Shown here: positions 4,831-64,000 of the stretch, one piece after another
Layout of the letters: every line of letters begins with the position of its first letter
How positions within the stretch are numbered: the stretch's first letter is position 1
Origin: Lytechinus pictus
Taxonomy: Eukaryota
Direction of reading: 5' to 3'
DNA: 64,000 bases
Assembly (NCBI RefSeq): GCF_037042905.1
Contig: NC_087250.1
Location: 15,006,001-15,070,000, forward strand
Notes under the pieces: model-generated
What the model saw: the letters and a program-made list of their open reading frames with translations, nothing else
Told to the model about the DNA's origin: nothing
Databases searched by the model: none
Program-made: the position numbers and the translations under genes

Positions 4831-6993
4831 TCAAACAGGGTTACCCTTTTCATGAACCTTACTATGGCACGCAAGACCTGCCCTCTGCTTAAAGGCTTGA
4901 GGGCAGAGCGGACATTTGTAAGGTTTCTCTTCAGAGTGTATCCTCAGGTGGTTCTTCAAGGTGGACTTTGTCTTGACGCGTTGCCCGCACAGCTCGCACA
5001 CAAATGGCTTCTCGTCAGTGTGGGTCTTCATGTGACAAGCCAATCCAGCTCTCTGCCTGAACATCTTCGGGCAAAGCGTACATTTGAAGGTCCTCTCGTC
5101 GGAGTGCAAGGCCTTGTGGTTCTGCAGGGTTTTGTTATCAGCAAAGGCGGCGCCGCATTCCTTGCATAGGTACGGACGCTCTCCTGAGTGGATCCGCATG
5201 TGAGCCTTGTACGAGTGATTCTGGGTGAAGCCCTTGTTGCATTCTGCACACCAGAATGGCTTGATGTCAGATGCCATTTCAGGATGGGCATTCATCCTAT
5301 GGCAGGCCAACCCAGCCCGCTGCTTGAATACCTTCGGACACAAGGGACATTGGAAGTTCTTTGAGTCCAAGCGGAATAGCTTATGTTTATGCAATGTAGT
5401 ACTATCAGCACAATTTGCACCACAGTCGTCGCATTCATAGGGCCTATGAATCTGCATGTGCATCATATACGATTGGTTGTTTGTGAAGCTTTGATTGCAC
5501 TCTGTGCACCAGAATGGCGTTTCCTCGCAGTGGGTTTGGATGTGGATGTTCATTGCTTTCCTTGAGGCAAAGTCTTGGCCACACTTGAGACATTGGTATT
5601 GCTTGAAATTCAGTAGAGAATGCTGGTGTTCAGTGAAAAAAGGTGAGAACTGTTCATCGCCAAGAGTAGAGGAACCATCTTCCATCAACATAACCTGATC
5701 AGTTTCATCCGAAGCTGTCAATGCTCTTGAGGAAAGATTTTCCTTTATCAATCTTTCTGTTTCTTTACAGTATTGTATAGACTTTGTAGGTTTTATTGGT
5801 TTTCTTTTCCTCTTCATATTCTTACTGCTTGTAGCTTCCGAGTTACTCAGTCCATTCTTTCTCTTCCTTACAAGTTCCAAAGTTTTTTCTAATGAAGTCA
5901 TAGCATGATTCGCTCTTAATTCATTTGAAGAAAAGGTAGTACATAGTAGAGCACCTTGAGGGACACCAGGTAATTCATTGCTCATAGTATTCTCATCAAT
6001 ATTAGCACTAGTCATGCATTCTGCCTCTGGGTTTTCATAATTTTTCATTTCACTGGTTGGCAGGGAACTTCCTAGAGAAACTGTATTATTTTGTGATGTT
6101 TTTGAAGAACAATTTGTAATTTGGCAGTTTTGGGCAGAAAATGTGCCACTTTGTAATGTGCTCGAAGAACAATACATATTTTTGGAAGAAACCTGGAGAT
6201 GACTATCCTGACAATCCAACGCTGAGGAAGCTGTACTATGTGCTTCAGGCTCAACTTTAATCTTATCTGACAAAAAATAAGTTGATGAAGGACCTAATAG
6301 TGCACCTTGAAGAACCCCATGCGATGCCACAGTTAAATCCATAGGCACGTCTTCTGTTCTCTCATCACGACTATCACTAATTATACTTTCTTTCAAATCA
6401 ATCTTCCTGTTATGTTCATGAAACATTTCACTGCCTTTCCTTAATATGGCGACATTGTGCGTTGAAATTTCCGAAGACAAGGCATTATCTTGTAAAAAGC
6501 TTGAAGAACTCATGCCATGTCCTAAATGATTTGAAAGATAACTCTTGGTTCTATTTTGTGGCTCCTCTATCGGCTCTTGGCAAATTAACCCAATGGAAGT
6601 TGAGTGGTATTCTGGAGCACTAAATGCAATAGAATGACCAACAGGTAATGTAGTACCAAAAAGTGCGCCTTGAGGGACACCAGGCACTTGATACCCTGTA
6701 AGCGGTGATCCTCCATCAATTGTACTGCTGTGCAGACCAGAGACTTCAGAATCTTCTCTTAACACTGTGCGTCTATCCAAGAAACGCACAGAAGAAAATG
6801 CAATACGCTGTGACAAATTCGAACAAATGCCACTTCCCGAAGGTGCCCCCTGATTTTCTACTTTCCTGGTTCGGTCATCGAAGATGACAGAAGCTGATTC
6901 AAATTCAGGAGGTTCATTCTTAATTATGACATCATTTCCTTTTGCACTTTCCAGAGGATCCATACCTTTTTTTAGCTTTTCAGGAGATTCCAT
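4831..6993 (-). CDS. C2H2 zinc-finger protein, 720 aa, single coding exon; 9 C-terminal fingers (one degenerate)
   Basis: The long ORF has CxxC...HxxxH repeats with SGERPY/TDEKPF/SEEKPY linkers. The first in-frame ATG is at 6993 (MESPEKL), with an in-frame TGA just upstream. A candidate acceptor ttcttgtcctgtccAG|G starts the exon at 7116. The N-terminal region has a PMDLT (CtBP-type) motif, IKNE/IKVE SUMO-consensus motifs and basic NLS-like stretches. Confidence 0.93.
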   Translation of the reverse strand: MESPEKLKKGMDPLESAKGNDVIIKNEPPEFESASVIFDDRTRKVENQGAPSGSGICSNLSQRIAFSSVRFLDRRTVLREDSEVSGLHSSTIDGGSPLTGYQVPGVPQGALFGTTLPVGHSIAFSAPEYHSTSIGLICQEPIEEPQNRTKSYLSNHLGHGMSSSSFLQDNALSSEISTHNVAILRKGSEMFHEHNRKIDLKESIISDSRDERTEDVPMDLTVASHGVLQGALLGPSSTYFLSDKIKVEPEAHSTASSALDCQDSHLQVSSKNMYCSSSTLQSGTFSAQNCQITNCSSKTSQNNTVSLGSSLPTSEMKNYENPEAECMTSANIDENTMSNELPGVPQGALLCTTFSSNELRANHAMTSLEKTLELVRKRKNGLSNSEATSSKNMKRKRKPIKPTKSIQYCKETERLIKENLSSRALTASDETDQVMLMEDGSSTLGDEQFSPFFTEHQHSLLNFKQYQCLKCGQDFASRKAMNIHIQTHCEETPFWCTECNQSFTNNQSYMMHMQIHRPYECDDCGANCADSTTLHKHKLFRLDSKNFQCPLCPKVFKQRAGLACHRMNAHPEMASDIKPFWCAECNKGFTQNHSYKAHMRIHSGERPYLCKECGAAFADNKTLQNHKALHSDERTFKCTLCPKMFRQRAGLACHMKTHTDEKPFVCELCGQRVKTKSTLKNHLRIHSEEKPYKCPLCPQAFKQRAGLACHSKVHEKGNPV

Positions 6994-7357
6994 TATCTCG
7001 CAAAAGATTCTCAAGAAATCTCTGGATTCATGTTGGTTTGGTCATGTCATCAGCATCAGCAATGCTGCTCCAAGATATCCAAACTGGTCAGTTGAAATTG
7101 GTCATCTTTTGGCCACCTGGACAGGACAAGAACACAACATTTTTATTTCATTTTAAATAATCAAGTCAGTTCCAATAGATAACAGCACACATTGAAGGAC
7201 TATTTCAGACCCTTATCCAGATAAATGCTGGATCTCAATTCATAGAATTTGTAAAATCCTATTTCTTTCTGCTTTGAGGTTTTCATTACATGTATTTTAA
7301 TAGTAATTTACATTTATATTCCGTTTCTAAGCGCGTTACATTGCAATTATTACACTA

Positions 7358-21500: not shown

Positions 21501-24500
21501 AGACCACCTTTTTTGCCTCTGGGCGCACTTTTTAAGGGGATCTTGGTTATAATTTTGAGGGCTAATTTTCTACCTACCAAAGTCGATTCTATGAGAAGGA
21601 GACCTAAATTTATTTCTCTTCATGAGTACCACAGGGAGGTGTTTTGGGCCCTGTTTTGTTTTACATCGCAAGGGCCTCAAAAAGTTTCATTGCATATCGT
21701 TGGGTACAGTGAACCTCCACCACCGGTTATTTACAATTCCCTGGAAATCGTGGGTGTTGAATTTAAGGATATCATCTATTTGCAGATCATAAGCATGGTT
21801 CTTGTGGAGAGGTCACTTTCGAGTGTTTTCCGTTTTTCTTTTAATATTTAAAAAAAAAAAGCGAAAAACACAGACATTGCACACAGTAAAAACGCTGTTT
21901 AAAATTTATACAACGCTGCGTATTATATGAACCTTACAGTAGTTGTTTAAAAGTTTAAGCAACCATGCTTAACTTATTGAGAATCAAATATTAGAAATCA
22001 ATCTTTATTGTTTAAGACTTCAAACACTTCTATACTGTCACATAATAGCTCAGTCGGTAGAGTGAGGGTTTCGTATTCCGGTGACCCGGGTTCGATTCCC
22101 AAATGGTGCGCCAGTGCATGCCCTTTGGTAAGGCATTTAGAACCTCATTCCCATGCAGGTCCCTCGGAGAGGACATTATGCCGTCGGTCCTCTGGCTGCT
22201 TGCTTACAAACATTCATGCTTCCTGAGCAATCAGGTAAAACAAAAGTCACTACAAAAAGAATCACATTATAAACAGCGCTGTACTTCAAAAACTCCGGTG
22301 TTGATTTAGCACCAGTCCGGAATCTATTATGTCCACACCTGGGGCCCGTTGCAGAAAGAGTTGCAATCAATCGCAACTCTAAAAATCATGCGCCACTTGA
22401 TTTTCAACCAATCAACAACGCGCATTTGGGACTTGCGATTGATCTTTTGGCTTGCGTTTAAACGCAACTCTTTCTGCAACGGGCCCCAGAGAAGTGTTAA
22501 ACAACACCAGTTTCGTTTTGGTCTAACACCAGATAGGTGTTTATATACAACACCAATTAGTATTAAAACAGCATCGGTTTGATTCCAAACTGGTGTTGAT
22601 TCAATACTTCTCTGGTGCGTGTCGACATAATTTATAGATACCGGGCTGGTGTTAAATCAACACCGGAGTTTTTGCAGTGTGTATACAAATTTTAAGCAGC
22701 GTCTTTACTGTGTAAGGCAATATAAGACGTACCCTCAGTATATCAACAACACCGGAAATGAACTCCTTCACACCAACATCGTTCCTTGCTTTCTTCCTAT
22801 CTACTGTCTCGATCAGTATCTTGGGTAGAGCGACATAGGCCAGAGACATCACCGAACATCCGAGAGCGAGGCAGACTGGCGCTATGTACTTATGAAAAGA
22901 CTGATCCGGACTGTATTGCAAAGCGACCCCGAGGGATATCTGACCGACACCCATACCTGTGCGACGAATAATTAAAAAAACAAATGACGACAACACGGTG
23001 GGGATGATAATGTTATAAAATATTGTTGATGGAGATAATAGTATTACTAAAATAACGCGAACATTAATGAGAATAATAGCAACGATATAATAATTATGAC
23101 GATGATGATGATGATAATAATAGAACAATAATAATCAAAGCAATAAAAGGCCTAATGACAGGAATAATAATAATAATAATGAGAATAATAATCATAATAC
23201 TTTTAATAATGACGATGATGATAATAATAAAGATAAGAGTAATATAGTAAAACAAAAAGAGATAATCATGATGATAATAACTCTAATCGTAATGACAATA
23301 ATGATACTTACAATAATAATTACATTAGCCTTTATAAATAACGACAAATACATGTAATGATAACGATAATAAGAATTTATGAAAGTAAATAAGTTCGATT
23401 AATTCTACTTTTGAAATTACGGCGAATTTTTGTTTTTTGTTGCAATTAAATGATTCTTTAAAAGTTTTCAGGTTCTGTAACGTCAAAACATGTTATTTAA
23501 TTCTTGCTAATCATCTTGAAGAAGAATTTGAAAAAAAAATTATGAGCTCAAAATTTGACACTATGATGTGAAATTGCCCTACCAACAAAAAATATCGTTT
23601 CCAATGTGACGACTCGAGTAGTTCTGGATTTTACTGACGTCACATCCGCTATATAAGCCACACCCGTCGACAGAAGAAGGGCCTGTCCCCCGGTAGCGCC
23701 CGAAATAAAATCTCCTATGAGCAAATACTCCATCGGAGCTTGAAAGTAGACGATACCCAAGTAAACCACGGATAACAAGCAGTAACCGGTGATGTTCAGA
23801 CAGAAAGCCGGTTTGCGACCGAACCGATCGCTCAGAGATCCGACGAAAATAGCCATGAAGACACCTATAGGATGAATAGGAAAGAAGCCGTATACTCCTT
23901 TATTCACTTTATTGATATACCAACATTTCATTCTTAATGTAAAAATGTACTTTGTTGCATTAAAAACTATCAAAATGTCAAATTCATTACTTTAAGAATC
24001 ATTTGTGTAGTGAACAAAAGGAAATTATTTTCATTAAGAAATTGGATCAAGAAAACGTCTCGAATTAGCCTACATAGGTCTGCATTCGTTTTGCGTGTGA
24101 CAGCCCTTTAAAGGGAGGGGGGCGAACTGAATATAAACCTTTTGAGATTAAAAACGGAGAATATATTAGTTTGTAAGATTGTTTGTGTAGAGGAACTTAA
24201 GGACAACTCCACCCCAACAAAAATTTGGCTTGAATAAAAGGAGAAAAATCCACAACTCTGAGAATTTCATCAAAATCGGATGCAAAATAAGATTGTTGTG
24301 ACATTTTAAGGATTTGCTTAATTTCACAATGCGCATCCTGGTCAGTATGCAAATGAGGGGACTGATGACATCAATCACTCACTATTTCTTTTGTATTTCA
24401 TTATATAAAGTATGAAATATTTCAATTTCGAAGAAATGATTTATTCCTTCCTGATCATATACCATGCATGGTATTAAAATAATGTGGTTAAGTCAAGTCG

Positions 24501-35432: not shown

Positions 35433-38400
35433 TTAGTTTTCCTTTTCATCGCTGTCGTTGACAAGTTGCTTGTAAGAGTTCCTTTGACTCAACTGCAATA
35501 AGCTGTGTGGTTAAGGGGAGACAAAATAAATCACAGGTGAAAAAAATGCTTAACATTGTACAATATATCCGTAGTATTATGCCATATTATTCGTAAAATT
35601 ATTGGCCCGTATTCTGAAGTAAGGTTTAACTTAGACCACGGTCTAACTCTGTGCTAAAATTATGGAGAAGCCAAAAGTTCAATATTGTTCTATATTTCTT
35701 ATGTTGAGTATTTTGTTTCCTTTTACTTTCATAATGAAGGAAAATACTTCAGCTATCATTCCCCGACTTTTATTAACAATTTTGGTGCCATAAGAGTTAA
35801 TAATTTGAATGTGTACTATTAAGGATTTGTGCTCCAATTCGCTCTCCATAGTTAAACCACAACTTTAAACCAGAGTTTAATTTAAACCCGAGTTCAGAAT
35901 ACGGGCCATTGGGTTTACGATTTCAATATAGTCGGACTGGCATTAAACGTTTATTTCATCCCGATGTGTGATTGAATTGGAAGGGTAAACTAATGCCTTT
36001 CACGGAATGATGTCGAACTTGTATTTCATACGGCCGTTATGTCCACTCTGATTTGCATACCACTTTTCCCTATTCTTGATTTCTATTCTTTCGGCATTCA
36101 GTAATAATTGACCATTATTCTTAATTATTTTTTTACTGTTTGATCTTATTTTCTGTAATTAAAAAAATATCCAGTTGTGAAAACTTTCAATCAAGCCATG
36201 GACTAGCATTTTGCGAAACTTTCTCCTCAATTTTAAGTGGACGACTGGTTTTAGATAGGGTCCATGGATAGATCTTTCTTTGTGATTCGGATAGCTCTTG
36301 CATTCAGGCATCTCCTCGTTACTTTCGATTCATATCAAACTTATACTGTATCGAGTGAGTCCAATCATTTGCCAAAGGGGGGTTGGGAGATATTTTGATC
36401 CTCATTTCCCCCCGACTGGAAGCTGTGCAAAAAGCCGAGGTCGGGTGGATGGTCAGTCATAAATATTTAATTACGAGTACATTTTATCTATATTTTTTTT
36501 TTACCGGCAGGATATCATGTAGGGCAAGCGGATTTTCCCTTTTAAATAGAGACACATTTTTGTTTGTGTAATAAAATTCTGCACCCGCCTTCCCTTATTT
36601 AAATAACTTTTCTTCTTCTTTTTGTCATTTTCCTTTTTCTTTTTTTCTCCTCTCTTTTACCTTCACTCTTCTCTTTTTTTCTACCTGTCCCTGCTATCAA
36701 CCTTGTTGGCACCACGAATAGGGTGGATGTGTGTGTGTGTGTGTGTGTGTGGGGGGGGGGGGGGTGGGTGGCTGGATCCGCTCATGCTAACTATCATTTA
36801 GATAATAGAAATACTTGATCTATCCTTTGCACGCTGATGTTGCAATTGAGCACATTCGTACAATTAAATTCAACAATCGTAATAATTAGTTTTCTCCCCT
36901 AACTTCATATTAGAGAAGCTAATAAATGGCAAAAGCTCTCGGACAACATCTATACATGTATAATAATCATCAGTGTCAATCGTTCAAAATGGAAATCTGG
37001 AGTCATAGAAAATAAAATAATTCAGCGGGTAATCAAACTTACCCTGTTACAATGATCGGGATGATGTGCAGACCGCATAGGAAAAAGAAGACGAAGGGCG
37101 GATAGAAGTATAATGTACTGGAGTAGATGGAATTTGAAATAAGAGGTGATAGGAATCCCGCCAATCCATCCATACAGCCAATGAAAGCCAACATTAGTCC
37201 TTCATTTCGAGAAAAAAAATGAATATTAGAGACTTTTCGCAAGTATGCAACGGGGACAGGCTCAAGAACACAGCAAATGCTTCTAAAACACTCTTCAAAT
37301 GACATTAAATAGCTGGGAGGTCTTTGTCGAATATTGGTGAACCAGGGCACCATTTCATAGAGCTGTTTGTAAATTGGGAGCGACTTTAAGAACGACTGGT
37401 GATCCTTTCTTGTGGTAAATGGTATAATAATTTGGCGATGGTTTAGCGCGTAAGAAAGGATCACCAGTCGTTCTTAAAGTCGCTCCTAACTGACGAACAG
37501 CTTTATGAAACGGACCCCCGGAACAGCAATTTCGTCAAAGGTTTCGGAGCTGACGAAAAATGGTCTTTTGCAGTTTAAACAATGTGAATAATATTTCACA
37601 TAGTCCACTACGTGAACACTCTGTGTGACACTGTGTTCGTTCTAGCAGGGATATGTTGCTGTCAATATCTTACATTTTATTTTTCAAGGTCAAACTTAAA
37701 TGATGTCATTGTAAAGTTCCCCTTTAAAGCAAGAGTTACACCAAAACCGAATTCTCCTGAAAAAATTCGGACCGATTCTAGCCGAATTAGGCCTAATTCT
37801 GATGGTTTCGGTGGATTCGAATGTTCCCCAATCCTTCCTGAATTTTCTCGCATTCGCTGAGAACAGAATACTCCTGAAACCAACCGAATGCGTGGATTCG
37901 GAGCTGCTTCGGTTCCGGTGTAACCCGGTCTTAATCATTCAGTCACATCAACCAAGCCAAGTCCCGATCGATTGCAACTTTTTTCTAATGTCATATCACT
38001 AGTCGATCTTCAGTCGGTTTAACTAGCGGACTAGAAATCAAGTGCAAATTTGCCACGACGGTGATTTTTTAACCTGGTTTCTAAGAAAACATGAATGCTT
38101 GTAACAACCAGAGGACCGACGTCTTTAGGTCATCTCCGGACCTGGTAATGAGGATTAATGCCTTACCAAAGGGCACTAGAGCACCAAGTGGGAATTAATT
38201 GCTAAAATTATGACTGACTTTTGTTTAACCCAGACTTGACTTGCAATTGATTGCAAGTTTCTTGTGTACCTTTCTCATGTGCGGCAGACATCTTGGATAG
38301 TTGAGATCGTATCACTGGGAACGAAAGAGCCTTCACAAGACTGAGAGCAGAACCTTCAAATGCATAAAAATAAATATACGATATTAGATGATTATCTGAA

Positions 38401-41400
38401 AAAACACATGATGTAAATGCACTTTTATTACTATCAGTCGTGAAATACAGAAAAAATCTTACATGAATATAACTTTATTTCGGATTGTACTTTTTACGAA
38501 TTCACAAAAAGAGTCAAACGCCATTATTTCGAGTACAAGAAAAATATCGCAGCGTTGAAATTCCAGTCATCATCATTTCCATATTTATGAAGTAATAAAC
38601 GTTATATTATTTATGGGCGGAATACTGCATGATTATTTTGTTATCACTTATGTAAACTTCATTTTCACGAGACCCACACTCTAATACTCACTTAGATATA
38701 GCATCCATTTCGTTGTCGCCAAGCCTGTAATTAAACTGGTCAATATGGAATTCACCAAACATATCTGAAGTATCCAGTTATCGTTAAGGAATCGAGGTAG
38801 CACCGCACCACCAACAATCATTCCTGAAACGATAGTTATTGAAATGAAATATTACATTTGTCAACATGTACCGTACCATCCACAATCATTCCTGAAACAA
38901 TAGTATAATAATAATATAATAACAACGCAGTTCTTGTATAGCGCACATCACATTATGTCATAACGTCCCTATACGCTTCCAAAGGACTTGGATATTGTTA
39001 CCTTGGCTTTAGCTTCACGGTCTTTTACAGCGCGGTGGCATTTCAAGGAATTAATTACTGCCAGGTAACCAATCATCTTACCTTGGTTGAGTGCAGCACA
39101 GCGTGGATGAATTTCTTGTTGAAGGAAATTATACCATGGCTAGGGTTCGAACCTACGACCCTCTGCATATAAATCAGAAGAGTAATCCACTGGGCCACAA
39201 CGCTACAGAAGGTGCAACGCATTATCACACAATCAATGCTGAATGAATACAAAGTACTAGTATATACGGTATCTACAAGAATTATTTGAATACTAAATAC
39301 AGACAGTATATCCTCACGTAATTATTAACACTTGCAGGACATTTATAAACATACTACTAAATCCCCTTTAATACAACAAATTAGCAACATTAAAAAATCC
39401 TTTTATTGCTGTAATTTTCCATTAATAAGAGTCTTCATATCTTAATAAAAATGATAGACGTCGATGAGAGCTCCTGCATGACTTACCTATGGACCCAAAG
39501 TTGACGTTGATGACAGCTCATGCATGACTTACCTATGAACCCAGAGCTGACGTTGATGACAGCTCATGCATGACTTACCTATGGACCCAAAGTTGACGGT
39601 GATAACAGCTCATGCATGACTTACCTATGGACCCAAAGTTGACGTTGATGACAGCTCATGCATGACTTACCTATGAACCCAGAGCTGACGTTGATGACAG
39701 CTCATGCATGACTTACCTATGGACCCAGAGTTTACGTTGATGACAGCTCGTGCATGACTTACCAAAGGACTAAGAGTTTACGTTGATGACAGCTCGTGCA
39801 TGACTTACCAAAGGACTAAGAGTTGACGTTGATGACAGCTCATGCATGACTTACCTATGGACCCAGAGATGACATGTGTGACACTGACCAATGACACATC
39901 CGATGGTAGATAAAAAAGCTCAAATTTTCGACTTACTTATCACGCAGGAGCCAGTGGACATTATAGTTTCGATAAGCTGACAGACGTCGACAACTCTTGG
40001 AAGTAGTCCCTATGGACCCAAAGGTCACAGATGTGGTGCTAGTGAAGGACACATAAACAATTCGTATTTACCTATCACACAGGAGCTCCCGAGCAAGTTG
40101 TCATATTAGAATCAATAAGCTGACGGAGTTCGATTAACGCTCATGCATGACTTCTCCATATGGACCCAAAGCCCACAGATGTGATGCTGACGAAAGACGA
40201 ATCCAAAAGCCCTAAGCAGATGACCCAAAGGATCTATTTACTTATTGTGCAGGAGCTCCATTGACAACTAGTGGAAATTATAGTTTCAGTAAGCTGACCG
40301 ACATCGGCCACAGCTCTTCCGTGACCTCCCTACGGACCCAAAGACCACAGACGTAATGCTGACGAAAGGGCACATCCAAAGTACTAAGTACTGTGGTCAT
40401 TAGAGTCTCGATATACTGACAGACTTCGATGAAGTTCCTGCATGACTTACCTATGGATCCAGAGACAACGGATGTGACACTGACGAAGGACACTTCCAAA
40501 GGCCCTAGACAGAAGGGCTCACCCAAGCTGTAAACGACGAAAACCTGAGATGCTGATTGGACTACAAAAACGGCGAACATCATGATGACAGTATAGCCAA
40601 TCACTTTCATTCGCCGTTTATCTGTATTTTCCTGCATGAGAAGAAAATAACTGATATCACAGAAGGGTAGACAGAAATAATCGTCTTTTCAATCAAGGGA
40701 TATGTTAACAGTCTATTACTACTATTACTATTATTACTACTATTCCCATCACAGAGGTACGTGGGGCCAACGAAGTTCAGCGGTACAACATAATGTACAA
40801 AGACTATATATTTTGGTCAGACACAAGGTCTAAGTGAGTAACGATAATACTTCAAATTGAAAAGGATGTCTGAAAACCGCCAGACACGCGTTGAGCCTCT
40901 GAAATATTTGCTCCCCCTTTAACCTGATTGGAAGGCAAGGGGGGGGGGGGGAGGTTATGGGATGCATTTCATTAATGTAATCAGTACACTATGTTATTAA
41001 CTTTCAAACAGGCTGTAGATTTACAGAACACTTTTTTATATTCTAGGTCCGTCTAAGTTCTTCAAAAATGAACTAAAGAATACTTCATTCCCATCGTGTT
41101 TCGCATAATCTCACCTTCAATAAGTGATAGATTCCGACTAGGACCTTTGTTACTTGTGAACCGGCCTTATCAGCCTTCTTCCTATCAACAGTCTCGATGA
41201 TCAACCATGGGGAAAGAACATACACCAGTGATGCAAGGGTACACCCTAAAGCTATCCACAGCGGGGGAAGATACTTATTGAGCGTCGGGTCCTGACTCTC
41301 CTGCAGAGTAAACCCAAGCGCTATTTGTCCGATCCCGAACCCAACAAACAGCATGGTCTCTACGATGACAATACGCATCGTTCTCGTTTTCGCTGAGGAC

Positions 41401-42735
41401 AAGTCGGACACGTAGGCTGCACTCGTTGAGAGGAGCAGCGAAAGCCCTCCGCCGAGACCGCCGATGAGATCCCCGGCGATGAAGGCCGGGATGGGGAGGT
41501 GGAAGTAGATGACGAGGATATTGCCAGCGGTGTTTAAGAGGTAACCGAAAAGGCACAATCCCAGGGCCGGTTTACGGCCGAGCCGGTCGCTGATGGATCC
41601 GAGGATTATAGCCATGAACAGACCTGAAATGGAACAATCAGTCAAGACCACGGTGAAAAGAATCATAGAAACAAGATCGAGGAGAGGGAACGGATGATTT
41701 AAAACCTTCACAATATCAATACACTCATGGAGAGCATTAAACATTTGTCGTAAGTCATGTCAGATCTTACAACTTTCCTAGACATTGATTGACTGAAGAG
41801 CACGGTTCATTTGGTAACCAACTGCCAGTAAAATACTTTGTCGAATAAAACATATCGCTCGATCTATTTAAGTTAGTCAAACTCGATCTGGCTCTCATTA
41901 CACAACGCTTCTGACAATGCTGTCCTTTCACATAATGACCAATGTAATCATGGGTACATAAATTGCCCTTCCAATGGCTAACCTTTTCTTTTGTCACAAG
42001 ACAAAGGTCTATAAGTTCGTTTTGTATCCAACTAGCTCATCTTCTTACTATTTCGTCTTTTCAACGTGACGTGTAGCTATTTCACCCAATTACCAGAACT
42101 GCTTGCCACGTTCTCTGGCTCGTTTTACTTTAGATTGGACGAATCAGACCAACTTATTAGACCAAGAGATAATTAGCCCAAGTGAGCATCAGACCTTTTG
42201 TGAATATTGAGACCGATTCACACAAAAAAACTTGACCAACGCGGGTTAGCCCGAAAGCATAATGACCCATAGATTGATTACACCAAAGAATTTGAAACCA
42301 GGCTTCAATAATCCATCTTCACTTACCTGGAATTGCGTTTATTGCACCAAGAATAAGAAGCCACTGGGCAGTTGTAGCTTGGATGCCATCTTCAACACTC
42401 GAAGAATTTCCACCACATGTTTTATTGTGCGTCGATGTGTTGTAGTGGTAGACATCCCTTGCTATCCGCTCCCTGAGGTATTCCGACCGCAACGTGCTGA
42501 GAATACTTATGCTCAAAGTCACTAGAAGAAGTGGCAGTTCGACCGTTAGGTACCTAGAGCGCGCCCTCTCGAGATTGACCTGAAAGGCTTTCTCAGGATG
42601 CAATGATGGGTTGGGTACTGGGATATAACTCGCGTTGATGCTTGGGGTTTTCGTAGGGTTGCCAGAATTAGTACTGAAGTCATCCTCGTTGACACTGCGC
42701 CCTCTCACCAACTCGTCATACGCACTGTCTTCCAT
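35433..42735 (-). CDS. SLC46A1-like: SLC46-family MFS transporter, paralog B, 7 coding exons, 513 aa
   Basis: Exons on the minus strand: 42735-42327, 41623-41115, 40631-40451, 38823-38692, 38353-38270, 37199-37043, 35502-35433. Introns are GT-AG with consistent phases, giving 1542 nt. Motifs: GSISDRLGRK, AYVSDLSSAKTRTMR, PVIRSQLSKM. Internal exons of 181/132/84/157 nt match paralog A in length. Confidence 0.9.
35604..35907. mobile_element. MITE of the GGCCCGTATTCTGAA TIR family; other copies at about 31882-32140 and 60-171
   Basis: GGCCCGTATTCTGAA...TTCAGAATACGGGCC termini. Confidence 0.8.
37343..37520. mobile_element. Hairpin MITE
   Basis: TTTCATAGAGCTG...AGCGACTTTAAGAACGACTGGTGATCCTTTCTT and its inverted copy. 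Confidence 0.75.
38905..39145 (-). mobile_element. tRNA-derived SINE (same family), minus strand
   Basis: Reverse complement of the A/B boxes (ccactgggccacaacgct, gggttcgaacc) and of the body. Confidence 0.7.
39471..39870. repeat. 46-bp minisatellite (9 units) derived from the exon3/intron3 donor junction of SLC46 paralog B
   Basis: ACTTACC recurs at 39481, 39527, 39573, 39619, 39665, 39711, 39757, 39803 and 39849. The unit matches catgacttacctatgga at the true donor (40441-40457). Confidence 0.92.
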
Positions 42736-43911
42736 TGTGTGCGCCTCTTCTGCAATGTAAATTCAGTAAAGTTTATAAGTAGGTTGTTTGAATTTAATAG
42801 CATTGTTGATTCACATCCGGTTCGGCCGGAAGGTCAAACGGTCTAGGCCTCGTAACACAAAGGTTAGCGATAAATCGCTAAATGAAATGGCCTATCAAGA
42901 TCATATACCATGATCCATATACCATATTTCTCAGTACACTGACTAGGAGCCAATCAAAATCGTTCTTTCAAATTAGCGATTGATCGCTATTCTTTGTGTA
43001 ACGGGGCCCTGGATTTCGCGAACTATCATGTTGAATTTGAGCATTTCAATAGTGGAACACATCTTCCCATTGTGCAATATGTAAACACACTGGGAATTTC
43101 ACACTGTGTGATACAACGTTCTTTTCAGCGAGTTTATATACCGCCCTTTTACACGGAAAAAAAAATCGTAATTTGAATGATGATTCCAATGAAAAATAAG
43201 GCTAATGAGGAATTTTAGCACGTGTGAAACCAAATTAGAATGACGAACGCTAATGACAATCACGAATTCAAATCCTACTCAGCATGCACAGGGGTGAATT
43301 CCAGCTAGGGTCCACTCAAATTAAGGTACGAATTTACCGTGTGAAAGATCCGTTGATTCTAAAGACGAATTACAATCATCATCACAATGATGATTCAAGA
43401 TTCACGTGTGAAAAGGCCCATAGTGCAAGCCTTGTAGAATATTTCCTGAGTTGTTTTGTCAATCGAGGAACAGCAGGCCTATATTCTATCATACAATTGA
43501 CTTGGTAATAATGGAAACATGTGGAACCGATTTTTTGAAATGTGTTTGAGCAATGTGCCTGAAAATGTCATATCCGATGCATGACGGTGTGTGTCAGGGT
43601 GTGTGTTGGGGGTGGGGTGGGTGTGTATGTGTGCGCGCGGGGGGGGGGGGCAGCTCACATATCACATATCGCATGTTAGTGAGTATATCTCTGAAGTAGT
43701 AAATATTAAATCTTTAAAGGATCGTAAATTCTTTAACAGGTTTTCGTCAATTCAAAGCTCTAAATAGCATAAGAAAAAAAAAAACCAATAATATTGATGG
43801 CTTTGATTTTTTTGTCACGTTTCAAATTTATCTTTAATGTTTGCAATACTTTTTGGGCTATTGAATTTTAATTTCGGGCAACCAAAACAAAAATAAAATA
43901 TGATGATTTTT

Positions 43912-50476: not shown

Positions 50477-53400
50477 ATGTATAATCTTGAGAGCCAATAT
50501 CTCAATAATATTACAAGATTAAATAGTTTTTTATCACCTGATGTTGATACCGAAGATGCTACTTTTAACTTATCTAATAATGTTTTTTCTATTTCTAAAT
50601 TTAGAACCAAATTGATGGATTGTGTGTCAAATAATAATTGTATAAATGATAAACACTTTTCATGTTTACATATAAACTGTCAAAGTCTTTCTAAAGAACC
50701 ATGATAATTTTTTTTTAATTCTTAAGCTGTTTAGATATCAACCCTACAATTATCGGCCTAACAGAGACGTGGATTTCCGAATCCACACCAAATGCAATAT
50801 TTAATATCGATGACTATAAATACGTTGGTTTAGAACGTAAGAATAAAAGAGGTGGAGGAGTTGGTTTTTACATTCGTAATAATGTTGAATACACCCATGT
50901 AACAGAGTTTGATATTAATGAATGCCACGTAGAAGGTATATTTCTGGAATTGAAACTTTGTAATAATTCTATATATGTCGCATCTATTTACAGACCACCT
51001 GGTCAGCCCATTGGTTTATTTGTTAATTCATTATGTGCAATACTGGATAAAATGAATATATCTTGTAAAAAACTGTATTTACTAGGGGATTATAATATCG
51101 ACTTGTTAAAAGTGAATAGGAATTATGAGGTTAATATTTTTTAGACACTTTGATATCTTATTCCCTGAACACTTTAATTCGTTATCCAACCAGAGTCACT
51201 GATCACTCTGCGACTCTGTTGGATAACATCTTCACCATTGACGAAAGTGTTTTTTTGTCAGGTGCATTGTTTTCAGACATAAGTGATCACTTTCTTGTTT
51301 TTTGTTTAAGTATAACACCATTCTTAATTGTAATAAATATAATAATATATCTGGGAAGCGGTGTAACATCTCAGATCAAAACATTGCTAAATTTATTCTT
51401 GAATTAAATAAAGTTGTTTGGAATGCTGATCATGAAGATCCTAATAAGTCTTATGATAAGTTTTTATACAAATTTTTACATGCACACAATGTATGCTTTC
51501 CATATTCCTCTTTTTCCATAACCAATAAGAATAGGAGCTATAAGCCATGGATGACAAAAGAAATACAAAAGTTAACTAAAACAAAATGTAAGATGTATAA
51601 GAAATTTATTAAGAATCCATCTGAATATAGGAAATGTGTTTATAAGAAATCAAGAAATAAACTCACAAATTTAATTAAAAAAAACAAAAAAAGAATATTA
51701 TCGATTACAGTTCCAAAATGCCTCTGGTGATATGAAACAAACATGGAAAGTGATTAATAAAACACTTGGTCGTTCTCATAAGAATACTGGTCTTGATAAA
51801 ATTACATACCAGGATCAGGTCTTAACAGATAATAGAGTGATATGTAATACAATAAACAAACACTTTATTAACATTGGTCCGAAGATACATTCTGAATTTA
51901 GATCTAATATAAATACTCAATCTGATTTATTAAAGTATATTACTAAAAACGACAAATCTTTATTTTTGTCCCCAATAACTCCTAAAGAAATATTGGAATT
52001 GTAACTGGTTTTAAAAATAATGTCAGTGCTGATTTTGATGGTATTGATGTCAAGGTTGTAAAGAAGTCAATACATGTAATTGCTAAATTATTATGTGATA
52101 TATTCAATTCTTCTTTTGTTACTGGGATTTTCCCAGACCAGCTTAAGATTGCAAGAGTGGTCCCTGTTTTTAAATCTGGTTCTCCTGACATCATTTAAAA
52201 TTATCGTCCAATTTCCGTTCTATCCATTTTTTTCAAAAATATTAGAAAGATGTATTTATTCTCGTTTACATAGTTTCATTTCTCAGTGCAATATTCTTAA
52301 CAATAATCAGTTTGGTTTTAGAAAGGGGCACTCCACATCTTCGGCCTTAGCAGAAGTTGTATATAAAGTCACAAGTGCATTAGATAAACATGAAACAATG
52401 ATTGGTCTTTTTATTGATTTAAGCAAAGCTTTTGACTCACTTGATCATGATTTATCATTACGTAAATTAAGTTATTATGGAATTAGGGGGATTGCACTCA
52501 GTTTATTTGACAATTATTTTCAAAATCGTAAACAGTTTGTTTCGATTGACAATTTTTCTTCCTCGATGCAAGGTATAAGATGTGGAGTGCCTCAAGGGTC
52601 GATCCTCGGCCCACTTCTGTTTAGAATTTACATCAACGATTTAAGTAATGTCTCCAAAATTGTGGACTCTATTTTATATGCAGATGACACCAGCTTGTTC
52701 AGGTCCCATAAAAATGTACAAACTTTACAAAATATTTTCAATAGGGAACTGAAATATGTATCAAACTGGCTTACTGTTAATAAATTAACCTTAAATGTTA
52801 AGAAATCAAATTTTTTGTTTTTTACAAATGAAAATAGATCACAATTCAAATTTGAGGTCTGTTTATATGAGATGCCAGTTAATGAAGTAACATTTACTAC
52901 CTTTCTAGGTGTTAATGTTGATAATAAGTTAACTTGGAATGAACATGCTGGTGTCGCCTGCAACAAAGTTGCCAACATCTTTGGTGTTATGTATAAACCT
53001 CACACATTGCCGAAGAATATTCTTTTATTGTATAATACCTTGATTTTACCATATTTGAATTATTGCAATATAGCCTGGGGTAATACCTTCCAAACACATA
53101 TTAACAGAATATTTCTTTTGCAGAAAAAAACCATTAGAATTATAACTCACTCTTCTTATCTCTCCCATTCTGGACCATTGTTTACATCTTTGAAAATTTT
53201 GAATATAATGGATTTAAATAGAATGAATATTGCACTTTTCATGTTTTTCTATAAAAAGGATCTCTTGCCTAATTCCCTTAAGAATTATTTTGTATTAAAC
53301 ACATCTGTACATACTTATTCAACAAGAAATGCCCAAAATATCCATATTCCACAGTGCAGTACTTCCATCTTCAAAAACAGTATATTTTATCAAGGACCAG

Positions 53401-53779
53401 TTATTTGGAACTCAATCCCTTCTGACATTCAATCAAGCCCTTCGGTATCTGATTTTAAAAGGAAATACAAAACATTTTTATTGTCTAAGTCTTAGATTTA
53501 TTTTTGGTTCTCCCCCCCCCATTCTCATTCGGTTAAGGTTTAGTTAGGTGTTTGTTTGTTTGTTATGTTTTTTCTCATTGAATTTGTGATTATATGATGT
53601 TTTTAATATTTCTTACAAGTACAATTTTTGTTATGGGTTGGCCTCACACAAGGTTTCTTCCTTTTTGGCCATTACCTTCCTCACTTTCTTTAAATTTGAT
53701 GTACATTGTATTTACATTGTCTATTTTTTAAATGTATTTTTATCTTGATCTCTTGAGGAGAAATAGATGAAACTTGAAA
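50477..53779 (+). mobile_element. Decayed non-LTR retrotransposon (CR1/L2-group, Crack-like) ORF2: APE endonuclease plus reverse transcriptase
   Basis: Endonuclease motifs LHINCQSL, IGLTETW, RGGGVGFYI, IYRPP, LGDYNIDLL, PTRVT..TLLDNIF, SDH. RT motifs QFGFRKG, FIDLSKAFD, GVPQGSILGPLLF, YADDT. Several frameshifts and stops. T-rich 3' UTR ending tgaaacttgaaa. Confidence 0.92.
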
Positions 53780-56942: not shown

Positions 56943-59308
56943 CTAGTAAGGGGTCCTGCGAGATTTAAAGTCAATATCTGGAGGACGACCTGGGGGGAGT
57001 CCAATGTGTTCTCCAACAGGGTGACATGGCCGACTCTGTGAAGTCATCATGAGGGCAAAAGTGAAGGGCACAACGGTGTCTGGCCACCTGAACTGAGGAT
57101 CCAACATCTTGCAGCGCCAGGGATCACTGGTAGGACCTGAAGCATCACCGGGGATATCACCAGGAGAATCCGGGGGTCGACCAGGAGGGTCATTGGTACG
57201 TAGGATACAAGGATGAGGATCCATATGATGATGCTCGGCGACGGTGATGTTGTGCATGAGAGCACAAGAACCCTTGACCACAGGAGTTGAAAGAGGAAGG
57301 GTATTTAGGTGGCACCAACTGTCATCATACAATGTAGGATCCAATGACCGACTACGATCTGGTTGAGATACAGAAACATCAGATGAGTCATGGACTGCAC
57401 AGTTTATACGGTATAAAGAGTCATGATCAGGATCCGATGGCTGTTGAGGTATCATAAGCTCACTGGTGGGCTCCACGGCTATAGGATGTCGGTCTGAGAC
57501 AACAACAGGTTCGATGTCTCTAACGACTTCACTTGTAGATGACTGGTCTGCAACAGCAGGATGGGCTCGTTCACAATCACAGGAGTCCGGAGTTGAAACA
57601 AGGTAAGATTGGTCAACGCCATCGGACGTAGAGTCAGGTAAGCCAGCAGCAAGCGCATCGGATAGAGGGATGGCCGAAGGACCGTACAGATACGATGGTC
57701 CATCACCGAATGATACTGCGCGCTTAGCCGGGCGGATAAACACGTCATGCAATTCCATGAATGGAATTCCAGCCTGTACAGCAACATCCAAAGACTCTAC
57801 CACTAATCCTTTGAAGAGAAACTGTCTGTTGTCCCTTGTGAATGTGAGACAGGTATCACCTACAATCGCAAGAGGGGAGGAATTGTCAGTAGGTTGAACT
57901 GATAGGGAAGTGGCGGTTATCTCGGCCCCAAGGTCTTAGACCACAGAACGTTGAATCAAATTCTCCGCAGAACCACAGACAATGCTCACACGGACACACC
58001 GATCACCATGGAACAGTTCCACGAAGGGAGTCACGGGGGCCTGATTAGGCACAACGAATGAACTAGCCACAGACCTATGTGGCGTACTGTGAAGACCTTG
58101 GACCTCATCTGACTCTGATGATTGTCCATTGCACCAGTGAGGGTCTCCCTGAATTGCTGACTCTGACTTCGAGTCATCAAAGTAACCAAGATGTAAACTA
58201 GGATCTATGGAGGAACGATCCACGGCATACGATGAACAGTCAACATAATCAGTAGGAATACAGCCTGGAACATGATCACAACCAGGGTCATGATCGACAA
58301 TCAACTCATCGCAGGTATCACTACAAGTCTGGAAATTGGTGTAGCCGAGAATGCTAGCGGCCTTGCGAGCTCGAGTAATCATGCGCCTTTCATGGTCAGG
58401 CAAGAATGGACAGTCACCAATATGGTGGCGGTAACCATGCCGACTAGCATTAAGACAAAGTGGGCACACAACTTGGTTTGCGTTAGGCCTATGATGAACT
58501 AAGGCGGGCCTAGGACTAGTCTGAATCGATGAAGGTGTAATATGCTATAACTATTGGTATCCTGGATATGTTCAGGACTCGACATATACTGATAGTAAGG
58601 TACATCACACTTGTGGTTATCATATACGTCATAATAGGCAGATCTATCATACATCTCTTTACTAGACCTACTACCGATATCATCTCTCGATTCATGATCA
58701 TCGTACACGGCTTGATGATTGTTAAGCTTATGGCTTAAGTGTGCGTGTAAAACTCTAATCTGATTCTGAGGATATGATTGGCTATGTAGATCTAGGCATG
58801 ACTTTTGTCTGGAATCATCCAACTTATAAGTAACTTGATCACAATGAAAACTGTCATAATCTTCTGGTTCACTCTCATCAACATAATCATCTTCCGGGTC
58901 ATTCTCATGATCATCTTCTGATTCATTCTCAACCTCATAGACATAATCATCTTCCGATTCTGGTTCATTCTCATCACCATAATCATCTTCTGGTTCTTTC
59001 TCCACTTCATAATCATCGTCTGGTTTATTCTCATTCACACAATTACGACCATTAGGACTGGCCCTGTCACCGACAAGTTCAACATCATCCACACGATGAA
59101 ATCTACTAATTTTACTATGTCTAACTCTAATTTCTTGATTTACTGTGTAATTTCTTGATTTACTGATTGTGTAATTACTTGATTTACTAATTGCATGACT
59201 AGAAATGTTTTGAATCTCTGACAGAAAAGTACAAGAACCAACTTGACTGGGGCGACCTCGCTCTCGGGCCTGAGGGCGAGGTCTTGACCTCGGTGAGGGA
59301 ACAGCCAT
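56943..59308 (-). pseudogene. Disrupted gag-protease ORF of the LTR element
   Basis: ORF 59308-58499 (acidic EPEDDY repeats) is frameshifted relative to 58469-57936 (zinc knuckle and start of protease). After one stop at 57936 the same frame continues to 56943 (rest of protease, PPGRPPD twice). Confidence 0.7.
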
Positions 59309-59458: not shown

Positions 59459-59633
59459 CGACATTAAGTAATAAAGGAGATGGGAAACCAGTTACAGTAA
59501 TAACACTTTTACTAACCCAACTTAGGGGCAAACCTCATTTACAGTGCGCGGCTATCGTAAGGGCCGATAAGACATCATCCCTCGCAGAGGGCGACATTTC
59601 ACAATACACATCAAACATAATAACATACTGGCG
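59459..59633 (-). repeat. 5' LTR
   Basis: 175-bp direct repeat of 54826-55000, adjacent to the PBS. Confidence 0.88.
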
Positions 59634-60099
59634 TAGAGCAAAAGAGAGAGGGAGAGAAAGAATGATAGCAATTTTAGGTGGAAATTTCTTTGCATTTTTT
59701 GATAAAATATCAATGCATCTATAGGCAAACATACCTGCATTAAATATAACCCCCCCCCCAAAAAAAAAAGGCACCAGGATCTAGATAGGGATTGGTCACT
59801 CTCCCACGCATTCAAAATCCACGACATATTCACTTTACTTTCAACCTTAGCAGGGAATGGTATAGGCCTACTAAAGATGGAGACCAATTCGAAAAGGAAA
59901 TGTCCTCTGTTTTTGATGGTCATAGCTACATAGGCCCAAGTATGACAATAATAGCTCTTCATTAATTCCGCACCTGGTGTGATGTGATGGAAGAAGAAGA
60001 ATACATAATTTCTATAACACATCAGACTAGCACTGATCATATAGCACAGCATTACAGCTACTGTACAGACAACAAAAATGCAAGCTGTCAATCAGCTGT

Positions 60100-60250
60100 C
60101 AGGTCAATTGTGACGCAATGTGCAAAACTGCACGTCATGCGCACAACTGCTTAAAGGGTGTATATGCGCATTGATGATGATGACGTAATGGTTTTCCAGC
60201 AAAATATGGCGACCGGCTGAGGAAGAGATGATGGAGATAGTTAGGTTGGA
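60100..60250 (+). promoter_or_regulatory. Probable promoter and first non-coding exon of the PRDM9-like gene
   Basis: Local CpG enrichment (about 60100-60600), CRE/ATF-like sites TGACGCAA (60111), CACGTCA (60131) and TGACGTAA (60181), and a YY1-like AATATGGCG at about 60203. It lies 2.4 kb upstream of the KRAB exon. Confidence 0.45.
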
Positions 60251-60608
60251 TCTTCTTTAGTTTAGTTACGCATATCAGATATCATCTTTGGTAACAGAAA
60301 TTCTGTGTCTGTCATTGAACAGCGTAAGTATTGTAAAACAATTTAGAAATAAGCTTAAATACTAATAGACTTTGAATTTTGATCCGACAACTCTTGTCAG
60401 ATTCGGTGCAGCCTGATGATGGTTCATTGGTTACTGCGGCAGCCCGAACACGTCGTGTCGAGGTCCCCGGGGCAAGTTCATTGGTTAAAGTGCTGCGGCA
60501 GGACGTCAGCCAGCCCAATTAGGCCGGCCCAAGGGCAAGGCAGCTGTTTGCTGACGATCCAGGGGCAGGGACACCGGTAAATTGCAAGATCATTTCATTT
60601 GTAGAACC

Positions 60609-60666
60609 GTGAATGTGAGAGTGAGAGAGATATAACGCGTTATATCTCTCTCACTCTCACATTCAC
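60609..60666. repeat. 58-bp perfect loopless palindrome
   Basis: GTGAATGTGAGAGTGAGAGAGATATAACG|CGTTATATCTCTCTCACTCTCACATTCAC. Confidence 0.95.
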
Positions 60667-62694
60667 CGGTACTTTCAAGTAGGCTAGACTCACGTCTTTC
60701 TTTAGTCAGATCTAGGCCTACTAGATTCTAGGACTAGGCTAGTTTTAGTTTCAAAGAAAGTCAAGAGACAAGAGCCAGGGACTAAGTAGTAAGTAGATTA
60801 AGATAAAGATTAAGAAGAGTAACTTTGTTAGGGCCTAGCCCTAAGTCTAAGACTTAAAAAAAATATGGTACTTACCGTACTAGGCCCTAGTAGTCGTAGA
60901 CTGCTTGGTATTAATATTATAATAAAGGTATTTTAGAAGAACTTTTGTACATTAGTCATTAGGAATAGGATAAGACCTCTTAGACTTAGTCTTACCGTTA
61001 AGCTTTTGTTTAACTTTAAATAAGGGTACCGGTACCGGTATTATTCGCCCAACAGAAGTTAGACTTAGATCTAGACTAGAGTATGGTCAGGCAGCGTGGT
61101 CACCATCTTTATGAGTATGAATGATATAACGTTAGGCCTAGATCTAAATGTATCATGTAGATCTAGATCTATAACTATTAGATCTTGATCTAGTTTGATG
61201 AATTAAATAAGGCAATAAGTTTGGGGCCTGGATCAGTGGATGAGCAGAAGCAGTTAGCTTTAAATTATAGACTCCAACGTCTGTCCAACGTCTGTGTCTG
61301 AATAGTAGTACATAGACTAGACTAGATCTGGGCCTACATAAGTCATAACATAAAGTTAGATCTACATAAGCCTTAAGGTTCAGTTCTGGACGCAGTATCT
61401 TCTGTTCCTCTGCTAAAAGTGCTAGGCTCTAACATAGTATGTCCAGCTCCCGGTGATAAACAGTGACGAGTTGATGGTCTATCAATGTGACATGTTTCCA
61501 CGGCTCCTACAGGAAGCTAAACACAGGCCCAGGGCAGTATAAAGCCTTTTTTTGGCCACTAAGGCACTACTAGCCTATAATGAGTGTACAGTAAGGGACC
61601 ATTTCGTCAGTGTATTTTTTGGCACATAAACACAATCTATTTTGCTATTTTTCAGAAGTTATAGGGAATTTCTGTAACTTTTAAGTAATTTTTATTATGT
61701 TTTAGGACTTGAAGATTATATTTATGTGTTTTTTAATGACAAATAAAGAATAAGAGCTTTCTAAATTTTGTGGTCCCAGCTAACCTAATCTAGACGTCTA
61801 TTTATGAAATATGAGGTAGAGCTAGATCTTGAGCGATGTATGTGATAAATCATGCTAATAAAAAATTAGTCTAGATCTAGATCTAAATTGATTTTTTTTT
61901 GTTAAAAATGCTATTTTTTTGTGGGAGTGCCTATCTAACTTAGAGTCTAATAAGTTACACGAACCAATCCAGATATTTCCATGAATGACATAGATTCTAC
62001 TAGATCTAGGCCTATTGCCAATGAATAGGGGGTAGAGCAGTAGATCCTACTAGAGATCTAGTAGTAGAAGGCCTAGATCTATTGGTCTTGCACCTTCACA
62101 GGCCAGAAGACCGAGAGGTGAGTCTAGGTAGGGGCCTAGTCTAGTCTAGGGCTGGCCTGGGCTAGGGGTTGTCATGGTTGTATAAAATGGCTATAGATTT
62201 TAGCTCTATAGCATATAGATCTAGATCTAGGTCTAGACTGGAAAGAAATGCAGAATGAAGCACTTTTCACGAGACAGATAAAGAAAATTACTGTTTTTTT
62301 TGGACTCTGGGCCTACCTTTTTTAGATCAGCCGAGGTAGTCTATATGGCTCATCCGGTCGTCCTCTCTGTGGGCTTTCCCTGAATCAATCGCTAGCAAAC
62401 ACCAATAAGATGTTGGCGGTAGGAAATAACCTGTAGGTCTACTCTAGCTGATATAATACATGTAGGCCTAGATTCTAGATCTAGATCTTGATTAGATCCG
62501 AAGTGCAAAGTAAAGTTATTTGTGACCTGTGGCTTATGTTGAACAAGCTGACAGTCGACTTTGAACCTATCTAAGTTTTTCTGCAAAGCAGATATCTAGA
62601 CTCGTCTCAGTTTTAGATGTGTCTAGTTGAATATCCCTCTTTCTAAGATTCTTGTTTCGTTTTTTTTTTACAATCTCACTCAGAGTTGTTCATC

Positions 62695-62830
62695 ATGCCA
62701 TTGCCAGCTACCGATGATTATTCAGCCGTACAGGCTTACTTCACAGCCAAGGAATGGGCAGAAACTAGTGATTATGAAAAACTACGTCTCAAGAATATCA
62801 AGGAAAACTATGAGATGATGATCGAAGTCG
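62695..62830 (+). CDS. PRDM9-like: First coding exon of a PRDM9/Meisetz-like gene, encoding an ancestral KRAB-A domain; the rest of the gene is not in the window
   Basis: Acceptor ...ctcactcAG at 62683, ATG at 62695 and a phase-1 donor G|gtaagt at 62830. The exon translates MPLPATDDYSAVQAYFTAKEWAETSDYEKLRLKNIKENYEMMIEVG, which matches the PRDM9/SSX aKRAB pattern (YFxxxEWxxxxxxEKxRxxNxKxNY). Confidence 0.8.
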
Positions 62831-64000
62831 GTAAGTTGACCATCATGATTAAAGTTTAGTCTAGACTGCAAACTTTGCAAGTGAACTTCTCTTCTTGGCT
62901 TATAGTCAAGAGTGTCAGTGTCACATGTACACTACCTCAATCAATTTCATTTTTTTCAAAGGAAAATGGAAAATGGTTTTTAATCCATGGAATTACTATG
63001 GAATACACTTGTTGAATATTTTCAGGTGTTGCCGAGGTGTTTCTGAAGCCACTTGGGTGGGAATGCCAAATTTTCCTAGGGTAAAGTAACAACTTGGTTT
63101 AAAAACCAAGTCTCTTTTTTTTATAATTATAAAAGGAAACACATAAGACTTTCAGAGTCATGTTGTTTTAGCATAGTATACGGCGCGTAGCAATCCCCAG
63201 TGAATATTTGCGCGAAGTCATGTCTAACAAAGTCATAGTCTTAATTTCAGTGAAGGACATTCATTTAACCATCATCAAGAACAATGCAATTGCACAAATA
63301 CATACCAATATTAATTATCAAACAAATTGCATATTACAAATAGAATACATAGAGAATACACCAGCAAAAAAAGCAAAATGATGGTTTGGTGACCCTGGTG
63401 ATGATGCATTTGGCAATCTTACTCCTCCCTGTTGACCAATAAGAGTTGACAGTTTTCTTGGCACTCTTATTGATCAATGGTATTGATCCTTTTTACATTA
63501 AGTTACAATTTTATGTGTGTGTATATCTATTTAATTAAATCAAACATTGTCCGTGTAAAATTACCAGAGGTGACAATCCTTTAGGGTTGTAGAGAAACAT
63601 CCCCAAAGATTTTCAAATGGCCAAAGAGGCAGAAAGAAAGAAGAAGAAGAAGGAAAAAAAACAGAACAAAGAAGAAAGAGCATAAAGAGAGAGTTATGGT
63701 TATGCAAATCAGTACTTCATAAATTATTCAATTGAGAAAAACATAAATGAAGAATTGATTGGCATGATAATGCATTTTTTATTTATGCAGGACTGATTGT
63801 GCCCTAACATTCTAAACAAATAATATCAGTCCAGCTTTGGTTATCCACATATCTGTATGCAGTTTACCATTCATGCAAGACTAAATGTGTCCTTTCCTGG
63901 TAATTTCATTTAACATTTTATATCCTGTAATATTTCTTTAAATGTGCCTTTTCCTGGTAATTCTATTTAATATTTTATATCCTGTACCACTTCTTTTTCA

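Follow-up and report, generated by a model that had tools for sequence, protein, structure and literature searches.

The window, the 64,000 nt of Lytechinus pictus DNA that we analysed, carries near its right-hand end an exon on the forward strand with which, judged by homology, the coding part of a sea-urchin PRDM9-like gene begins, and which specifies the ancestral KRAB-A domain of its product. The features of the locus are as follows.

60201..60329, + strand: candidate promoter or non-coding first exon, with GTAAGT as donor at 60324 and, at 60201, a YY1-like word; speculative
62648..62683, + strand: predicted splice acceptor read in the sequence, a pyrimidine tract with a T run that ends in CAG
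62684..62830, + strand: first coding exon of the PRDM9-like gene, 147 nt, made up of 11 nt of 5' UTR, 45 codons and one base
62695..62697, + strand: start codon, equivalent to Met1 of the homologous RefSeq proteins
62716..62829, + strand: ancestral KRAB-A domain (residues 8-45), the same sequence as in XP_030849319
62831..62836, + strand: predicted phase-1 splice donor GTAAGT, from the sequence and from the end of homology to spliced proteins at this point
62831..64000, + strand: probable start of the following intron, without a match to the next residues of the homologues

The 45 codons that begin with the ATG at 62695 encode MPLPATDDYSAVQAYFTAKEWAETSDYEKLRLKNIKENYEMMIEV. Codon 45 is followed by a single base, the G at 62830, and then by GTAAGT, which makes the donor one of phase 1; the AG of the acceptor was read at 62682-62683. 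Frame 1 from 62684 was also considered and rejected as the coding frame. An earlier note on this DNA had described an exon with a phase-1 donor that was absent from the list of open reading frames, and both statements held: acceptor, ATG and donor are all present in the sequence, and the exon is missing from the list because its stop-to-stop frame (62647-62856) has only 70 codons, the listed frames being of at least 100 aa.

Identity to the spliced homologues ends exactly at G46, after which the homologues continue with LDVGPPEFM whereas the genomic frame reads KLTIMIKV-stop. A tblastn search with the following residues of four homologues (P0004, P0006, P0007 and P0008; such numbers denote proteins of our collection) gave no match in 62831-64000, and none of seven candidate acceptors in 62861-64000 yielded LDVGPPEFM. 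The best looking of the acceptors, at 63025, reads GVAEVFLKPLGW and was rejected, its resemblance to the leader of P0029 reaching only E 0.72. Among 52 relatives from the phmmer search described below, a pattern allowed 47 to be cut at this glycine; by hand count, 24 of these continue with the aKRAB-B PxxF motif and 23 with unrelated residues, which begin with lysine, as in the window, in 12 cases. Unrelated residues after the glycine are what read-through of a phase-1 GTAAG donor is expected to produce, and since vertebrate-type sequences are included, the position of the phase-1 intron after G46 looks conserved. We infer that a phase-1 splice joins the exon to one that lies past the end of the window and would supply the aKRAB-B motif PPEFM.

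Upstream, 60201..60329 can be offered only as a guess for a promoter or non-coding first exon. The word at 60201 is one that we take to be YY1-like, and the CpG observed/expected ratio is 0.88 at 60201-60400 as against 0.15-0.76 in the neighbouring 200-bp bins. The candidate first exon carries upstream ATGs, and seven candidate donors lie in 59500-62660. The composition of this region is unusual: CTAG is enriched at 60001-63000 (10, 13 and 21 per kb, versus 0-8 in the other 61 one-kb bins), and many short AGATCTAG repeats occur in the same interval, around the exon and upstream of it. A perfect 58-bp palindrome of two 29-bp arms without a loop lies at 60609-60666, and two tandem 57-bp copies, 86% identical, lie at the window edge (63882-63995).

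The rest of the window holds genes and repeats of other kinds. A single long frame at 4831-7041 on the minus strand encodes a 720-aa C2H2 zinc-finger protein that matches P0076 at 100%; over the part searched it is 43% identical to a S. purpuratus protein, and it has no KRAB and no SET. Exons of two similar tandem major-facilitator transporter genes, presumably SLC46-like, were found on the minus strand at about 22650-24000 and at 37040-42760, with a Pfam MFS_1 match at 41088-41759. A broken LINE-type element at 50719-53495 (+) includes a frame for reverse transcriptase (Pfam RVT_1, E 1.9e-27) besides pieces that resemble an endonuclease. At 56943-59308 (-), three frames that follow one another (330, 202 and 269 aa) gave no convincing Pfam match and, by eye, resemble a decayed retrotransposon gag/protease-like region.

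The identity of the domain could be established by comparison with published profiles. Residues 8-45 of the exon (38 residues) are letter-identical to the aKRAB-A listed for S. purpuratus XP_030849319 in Table S1 of Lorenz 2022 (PMC8835667). In that table this domain scores E 1.3e-20 with the PRDM9-type profile, 1.4e-15 with the all-aKRAB profile, 1.5e-9 with the coelacanth type, 3.7e-7 with the SSX type and 1.2e-3 with the human modern KRAB-A, and its Pfam KRAB column is empty (PMC8835667). Our own Pfam scan of the 45-residue exon peptide likewise returned no family, so that there is no modern KRAB (PF01352) at the gathering score, and a PDB sequence search with the peptide gave only four chance matches (E 0.94-1.5). 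When the 2074 stop-to-stop segments of the window were searched with a profile of our own, the exon frame scored E 1.1e-21 and the next best segment E 0.45; the profile was built from 20 homologous segments, none of them more than 50% identical to the exon, chosen from 73 found with the exon itself, and the test is thus partly circular. In a phmmer search of 1.84 billion representative proteins, 55 relatives of the exon were found at E <= 0.001. Among the five best families for each of 52 new relatives scanned, a Pfam KRAB match occurs in 18, of which nine lie above the gathering score, and a PR/SET match in 12. An ESM Atlas search with residues 1-80 of P0004 gave one KRAB/SSXRD cluster at 0.76, which is a lead only.

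On the Table S1 identity, the relatives and the distant-homologue profile together, the exon is, by homology, an ancestral KRAB-A (aKRAB-A, InterPro IPR003655 type) of the PRDM9 type and not a modern KRAB. This bears out the ancestral-KRAB exon of PRDM9 type that had been claimed, the published domain that scores 1.3e-20 being the same over residues 8-45. The search with KRAB profiles had a divided outcome, as Pfam reported nothing while the PRDM9-specific and home-made profiles detected the domain. A chance KRAB-like reading in non-coding DNA, to which the empty Pfam result, the lack of a meaningful PDB match and the 70-codon frame might seem to point, is already refuted by the proteins of three sea-urchin species that match at 46/46, by the 55 relatives among 1.84 billion proteins and by correct splice signals exactly at the homology boundary. 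As for its activity, section 2.1 of Lorenz 2022 states that aKRAB-A has a gap in the VMLE region, on which TRIM28 binding depends, and the human PRDM9 aKRAB-A is called inactive in silencing in the same article (PMC8835667); by analogy, the urchin aKRAB would not be expected to act as a TRIM28-type repressor.

Having identified the domain, we turn to the gene that it belongs to. When longer proteins were searched with the exon, nine of 14 candidates matched, all of them from sea urchins and 93-100% identical, and most carry the RefSeq names PRDM9-like or PRDM7-like. All 46 residues match at residues 1-46 of L. pictus P0004 (XP_063956495, 800 aa) and P0002, L. variegatus P0012 (XP_041466715) and S. 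purpuratus P0011 (XP_030849319), and at residues 10-55 of L. variegatus P0003 (XP_041466345), which has nine extra N-terminal residues. The closest homologues of the exon (43-46/46) are without exception sea-urchin PRDM9/PRDM7-like proteins or truncated forms of them, which agrees with the earlier proposal that a PRDM9/Meisetz-like gene starts here. That note had also called the exon unannotated, and in this it was mistaken: RefSeq PRDM9-like proteins carry the exact N-terminus, and the identical domain stands in a table published in 2022. Exon and gene family are both already known from these two sources, and the exon adds nothing to the catalogue.

The gene is most likely the one represented by the full-length RefSeq model XP_063956495 (P0004), to go by the match of its N-terminus. 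Among L. pictus P0004, P0006 and P0008, only P0004 matches at 46/46, the other two differing at one residue each. The exon is nearly invariant among the paralogues (43-46/46), the truncated P0005, P0009 and P0011 included, and therefore identifies the copy weakly; P0002, a L. pictus model that lacks half of the PR/SET, is also identical to it at 46/46. P0004, P0006, P0008 and P0076 appear to lie on the window's L. pictus chromosome, and the exons for SSXRD, PR/SET and fingers probably lie beyond the window.

In the predicted product of P0004, aKRAB-A and aKRAB-B are followed by an SSXRD-like motif (231-256), then by a zinc knuckle and PR/SET, and finally by a single isolated finger and the tandem array. 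Its PR/SET matches Pfam PF21549 at 299-418 (E 1.7e-44). Pfam recognises an SSXRD stretch in the caecilian PRDM9 P0074, with which the segment 231-256 can be aligned. The segment is found at E 8.9e-14 with a mixed eight-sequence profile as against E 1.7 with a vertebrate-only SSXRD profile of three sequences, and SSXRD was not among the Pfam families listed for P0004; in six of nine urchin homologues, those with full family lists, neither Pfam KRAB nor Pfam SSXRD was found. When S. purpuratus P0007 was searched against the PDB, the PR/SET of human and mouse PRDM9 came out best (E 1.7e-47 to 8.1e-46), followed by the PRDM11 family at E 3.7e-32. Tyrosines 82, 147 and 163 of the human chain (counted by hand) match tyrosines of P0007 and are spaced like Y276, Y341 and Y357, the catalytic tyrosines in the numbering of the Rudler preprint (10.64898/2026.09.07.749791). 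Motifs with all three equivalents are present in seven of the ten urchin proteins checked, P0004 among them; in the remaining models, P0002, P0006 and P0011, the PR/SET domain is missing its second half.

The exon might instead start a truncated or SET-less PRDM9 paralogue, or be an orphan duplicated exon. Five proteins (P0005, P0006, P0009, P0010 and P0011) share it nearly exactly (43-46/46), and two of them, P0009 and P0010, pass from the SSXRD-like motif to the first finger without a PR/SET; aKRAB-finger proteins without a SET domain occur in Lytechinus as well, several of them on this contig, and no following coding exon was found within 62831-64000. Against this, the SET-less Lytechinus family differs from the exon at 13 or more of the 46 residues (22-33/46 identical), the exon is identical to that of the full-length P0004, and its acceptor, start and donor are intact. 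We consider this explanation improbable, and take the full-length P0004 gene as the preferred reading in what follows.

The PRDM9-like gene is present in several copies. L. pictus has two apparently full-length models (P0004 and P0008) and one truncated model (P0006), L. variegatus has two apparently full-length copies (P0003 and P0012), and the finger arrays of these four full-length proteins differ. Over 345 N-terminal columns, identity to P0004 amounts to 96% for L. variegatus P0012 and to 87% for P0008, which is from the same species as P0004, and in a tree of 11 proteins P0004 and P0012 were joined at 94/94, just under the bar of the tool. Since P0004 is closer to P0012 than to P0008, one or more duplications are probably older than the divergence of L. 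pictus from L. variegatus; alternatives to this sequence-based view are allelic haplotigs and gene conversion. The place of P0008 relative to S. purpuratus was not settled by the same tree (88/86 for the S. purpuratus clade), and with this support we do not claim that P0008 split off before Lytechinus and Strongylocentrotus parted. The RefSeq proteins suggest several full-length PRDM9 copies per genome in Lytechinus, as in cnidarians, where such copies were reported in 10 of 28 species as an unprecedented pattern (Rudler, 10.64898/2026.09.07.749791). Urchins go unmentioned in the main text of that preprint, and they may be among the 97 metazoan PRDM9 sequences that it tabulates (10.64898/2026.09.07.749791).

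The finger arrays were compared by the fraction of their diversity that falls on positions -1, 2, 3 and 6, the last, atypical finger of each array being excluded by pattern. P0004 gave 0.51 (six complete tandem fingers), P0008 0.51 (10 fingers), P0003 0.61 (five), P0012 0.59 (seven), P0002 0.48 (nine) and P0015 0.46 (nine), and Diadema P0078 gave 0.41. All six urchin PRDM9-like arrays hence fall at 0.46-0.61, versus 0.19 for the control P0076 and 0.26-0.31 for five SET-less aKRAB-finger proteins. By a formula that may differ from ours, full-length vertebrate PRDM9 spans 0.33-1.0, and truncated copies reach 0.52 in vertebrates and 0.78 in cnidarians (Rudler preprint, 10.64898/2026.09.07.749791). 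As the urchin values lie within the full-length range but overlap that of truncated copies, they fit hotspot function and are no proof of it. Between species the arrays have no recognition helix (positions -1 to 6) in common, which is expected from fast turnover. A rank test on contact positions was dropped, as it did not separate PRDM9 arrays from ordinary arrays (p 0.0001-0.04 in the controls also).

Several published studies touch on this family. Vervoort 2016 counts 18 Prdm genes in S. purpuratus (PMC4760075), and for Nematostella, Lottia and Capitella a rapid evolution of the fingers was described by Oliver 2009 (PMC2779102). The criteria for vertebrate PRDM9 were defined by Baker 2017, the available portion of which leaves the sea urchin unmentioned (PMC5519329), and urchin finger genes are treated without PRDM9 in the corresponding portion of Wells 2023 (PMC10547256). 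The introduction of Lorenz 2022 cites the sea-urchin Meisetz homologue as the root of the KRAB motif (PMC8835667). Neither a Lytechinus PRDM9 study nor a sea-urchin hotspot study was among the literature matches listed, most subscription journals lying outside the coverage. Reference 13 of Lorenz 2022 is presumably Birtle and Ponting 2006.

PRDM9 is the gene that positions recombination hotspots in mammals. Were the vertebrate mechanism, as summarised in the Rudler introduction (10.64898/2026.09.07.749791), to be carried over to the urchin gene, its finger array would bind DNA motifs in meiotic cells, its PR/SET domain would trimethylate H3K4 and H3K36, and KRAB/SSXRD would help to bring in the break machinery; hotspots would thereby sit at the binding sites of the finger array. 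By this analogy the urchin gene may place recombination hotspots, a reading which we hold tentatively and put at close to an even chance. The Rudler 2026 preprint calls it largely unknown whether hotspots are placed by PRDM9 in animals other than vertebrates (10.64898/2026.09.07.749791), and in termites full-length PRDM9 and hotspots coexist and could not be linked (PMC12047536).

It is also quite conceivable, if somewhat short of an even chance, that the gene is full-length and places no hotspots, its product being a sequence-specific regulator of chromatin or transcription, or a short-lived redundant duplicate. Each of the two Lytechinus species has at least two apparently full-length copies; in vertebrates the role is usually kept by one copy, and fingers that evolve fast can be a remnant (10.64898/2026.09.07.749791). 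The finger diversity of P0004 is moderate, and the absence of a sea-urchin hotspot study from the matches listed would sit well with the same explanation. It is opposed by the presence in P0004, as far as testable, of all the sequence hallmarks that track hotspot function in vertebrates, and by the lack of any recognition helix identical between species, as fast turnover predicts.

Returning to hotspot placement by the urchin gene, we can extend it to a wider scenario that we regard as rather unlikely: the exon might start one of two or more coexisting intact Lytechinus PRDM9 genes, of which one or more pairs would predate the species split and each would have its own fast-changing array, and which would jointly direct hotspots. 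If true, PRDM9 would direct recombination in an invertebrate deuterostome, through full-length copies that have persisted side by side for a long time. It would also mean that the same lineage shed the enzyme domain and gave rise to KRAB-zinc-finger-like genes, independently of vertebrates. From their sequences, the SET-less aKRAB-finger proteins look like a separate birth of the KRAB-zinc-finger layout. A profile of five SET-less relatives matched the KRAB of ZFP568 weakly (E 0.0051) and ZNF93 not significantly (E 0.61). PHD fingers are carried by P0056 and P0084, and THAP domains by P0043 and P0082. Laboratory breeding and gene editing are established in L. pictus, and sea-urchin gametes are accessible, so that the PRDM9-like genes of urchins could make the question of hotspot placement outside vertebrates testable.

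Among known systems, SSX and the modern KRAB zinc-finger proteins have a homologous box. The PRDM9-type profile scores far better than that of the SSX aKRAB (1.3e-20 versus 3.7e-7), SSX being restricted to mammals according to section 2.1 of Lorenz 2022 (PMC8835667), and the human profile of modern KRAB-A reaches only E 1.2e-3. Within Lytechinus, the SET-less aKRAB zinc-finger proteins (P0029, P0030, P0056, P0083 and P0084) have the same type of aKRAB exon, with 22-32/46 residues identical in the four that were compared, and three of them (P0029, P0030 and P0056) have the linker and first finger in common with P0004 but, unlike P0004, no SSXRD-like motif or PR/SET. From vertebrate PRDM9, for which alone hotspot function has been shown, the urchin proteins differ in that their aKRAB and SSXRD fall below Pfam detection. 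The full-length urchin proteins nevertheless share with it (human PR/SET 4IJD and 6NM4) the domain order, the three tyrosines and the variable contact sites of the fingers, and the aKRAB-A of the exon can be aligned by direct search with that of the Microcaecilia PRDM9 XP_030069220 (P0074) at 49% identity (E 8.6e-4). The likeness is closest to the urchin PRDM9-like proteins P0004, P0003, P0012 and P0011, with which the residues of the exon, its start (plus nine residues in P0003) and the break at G46 are all shared.
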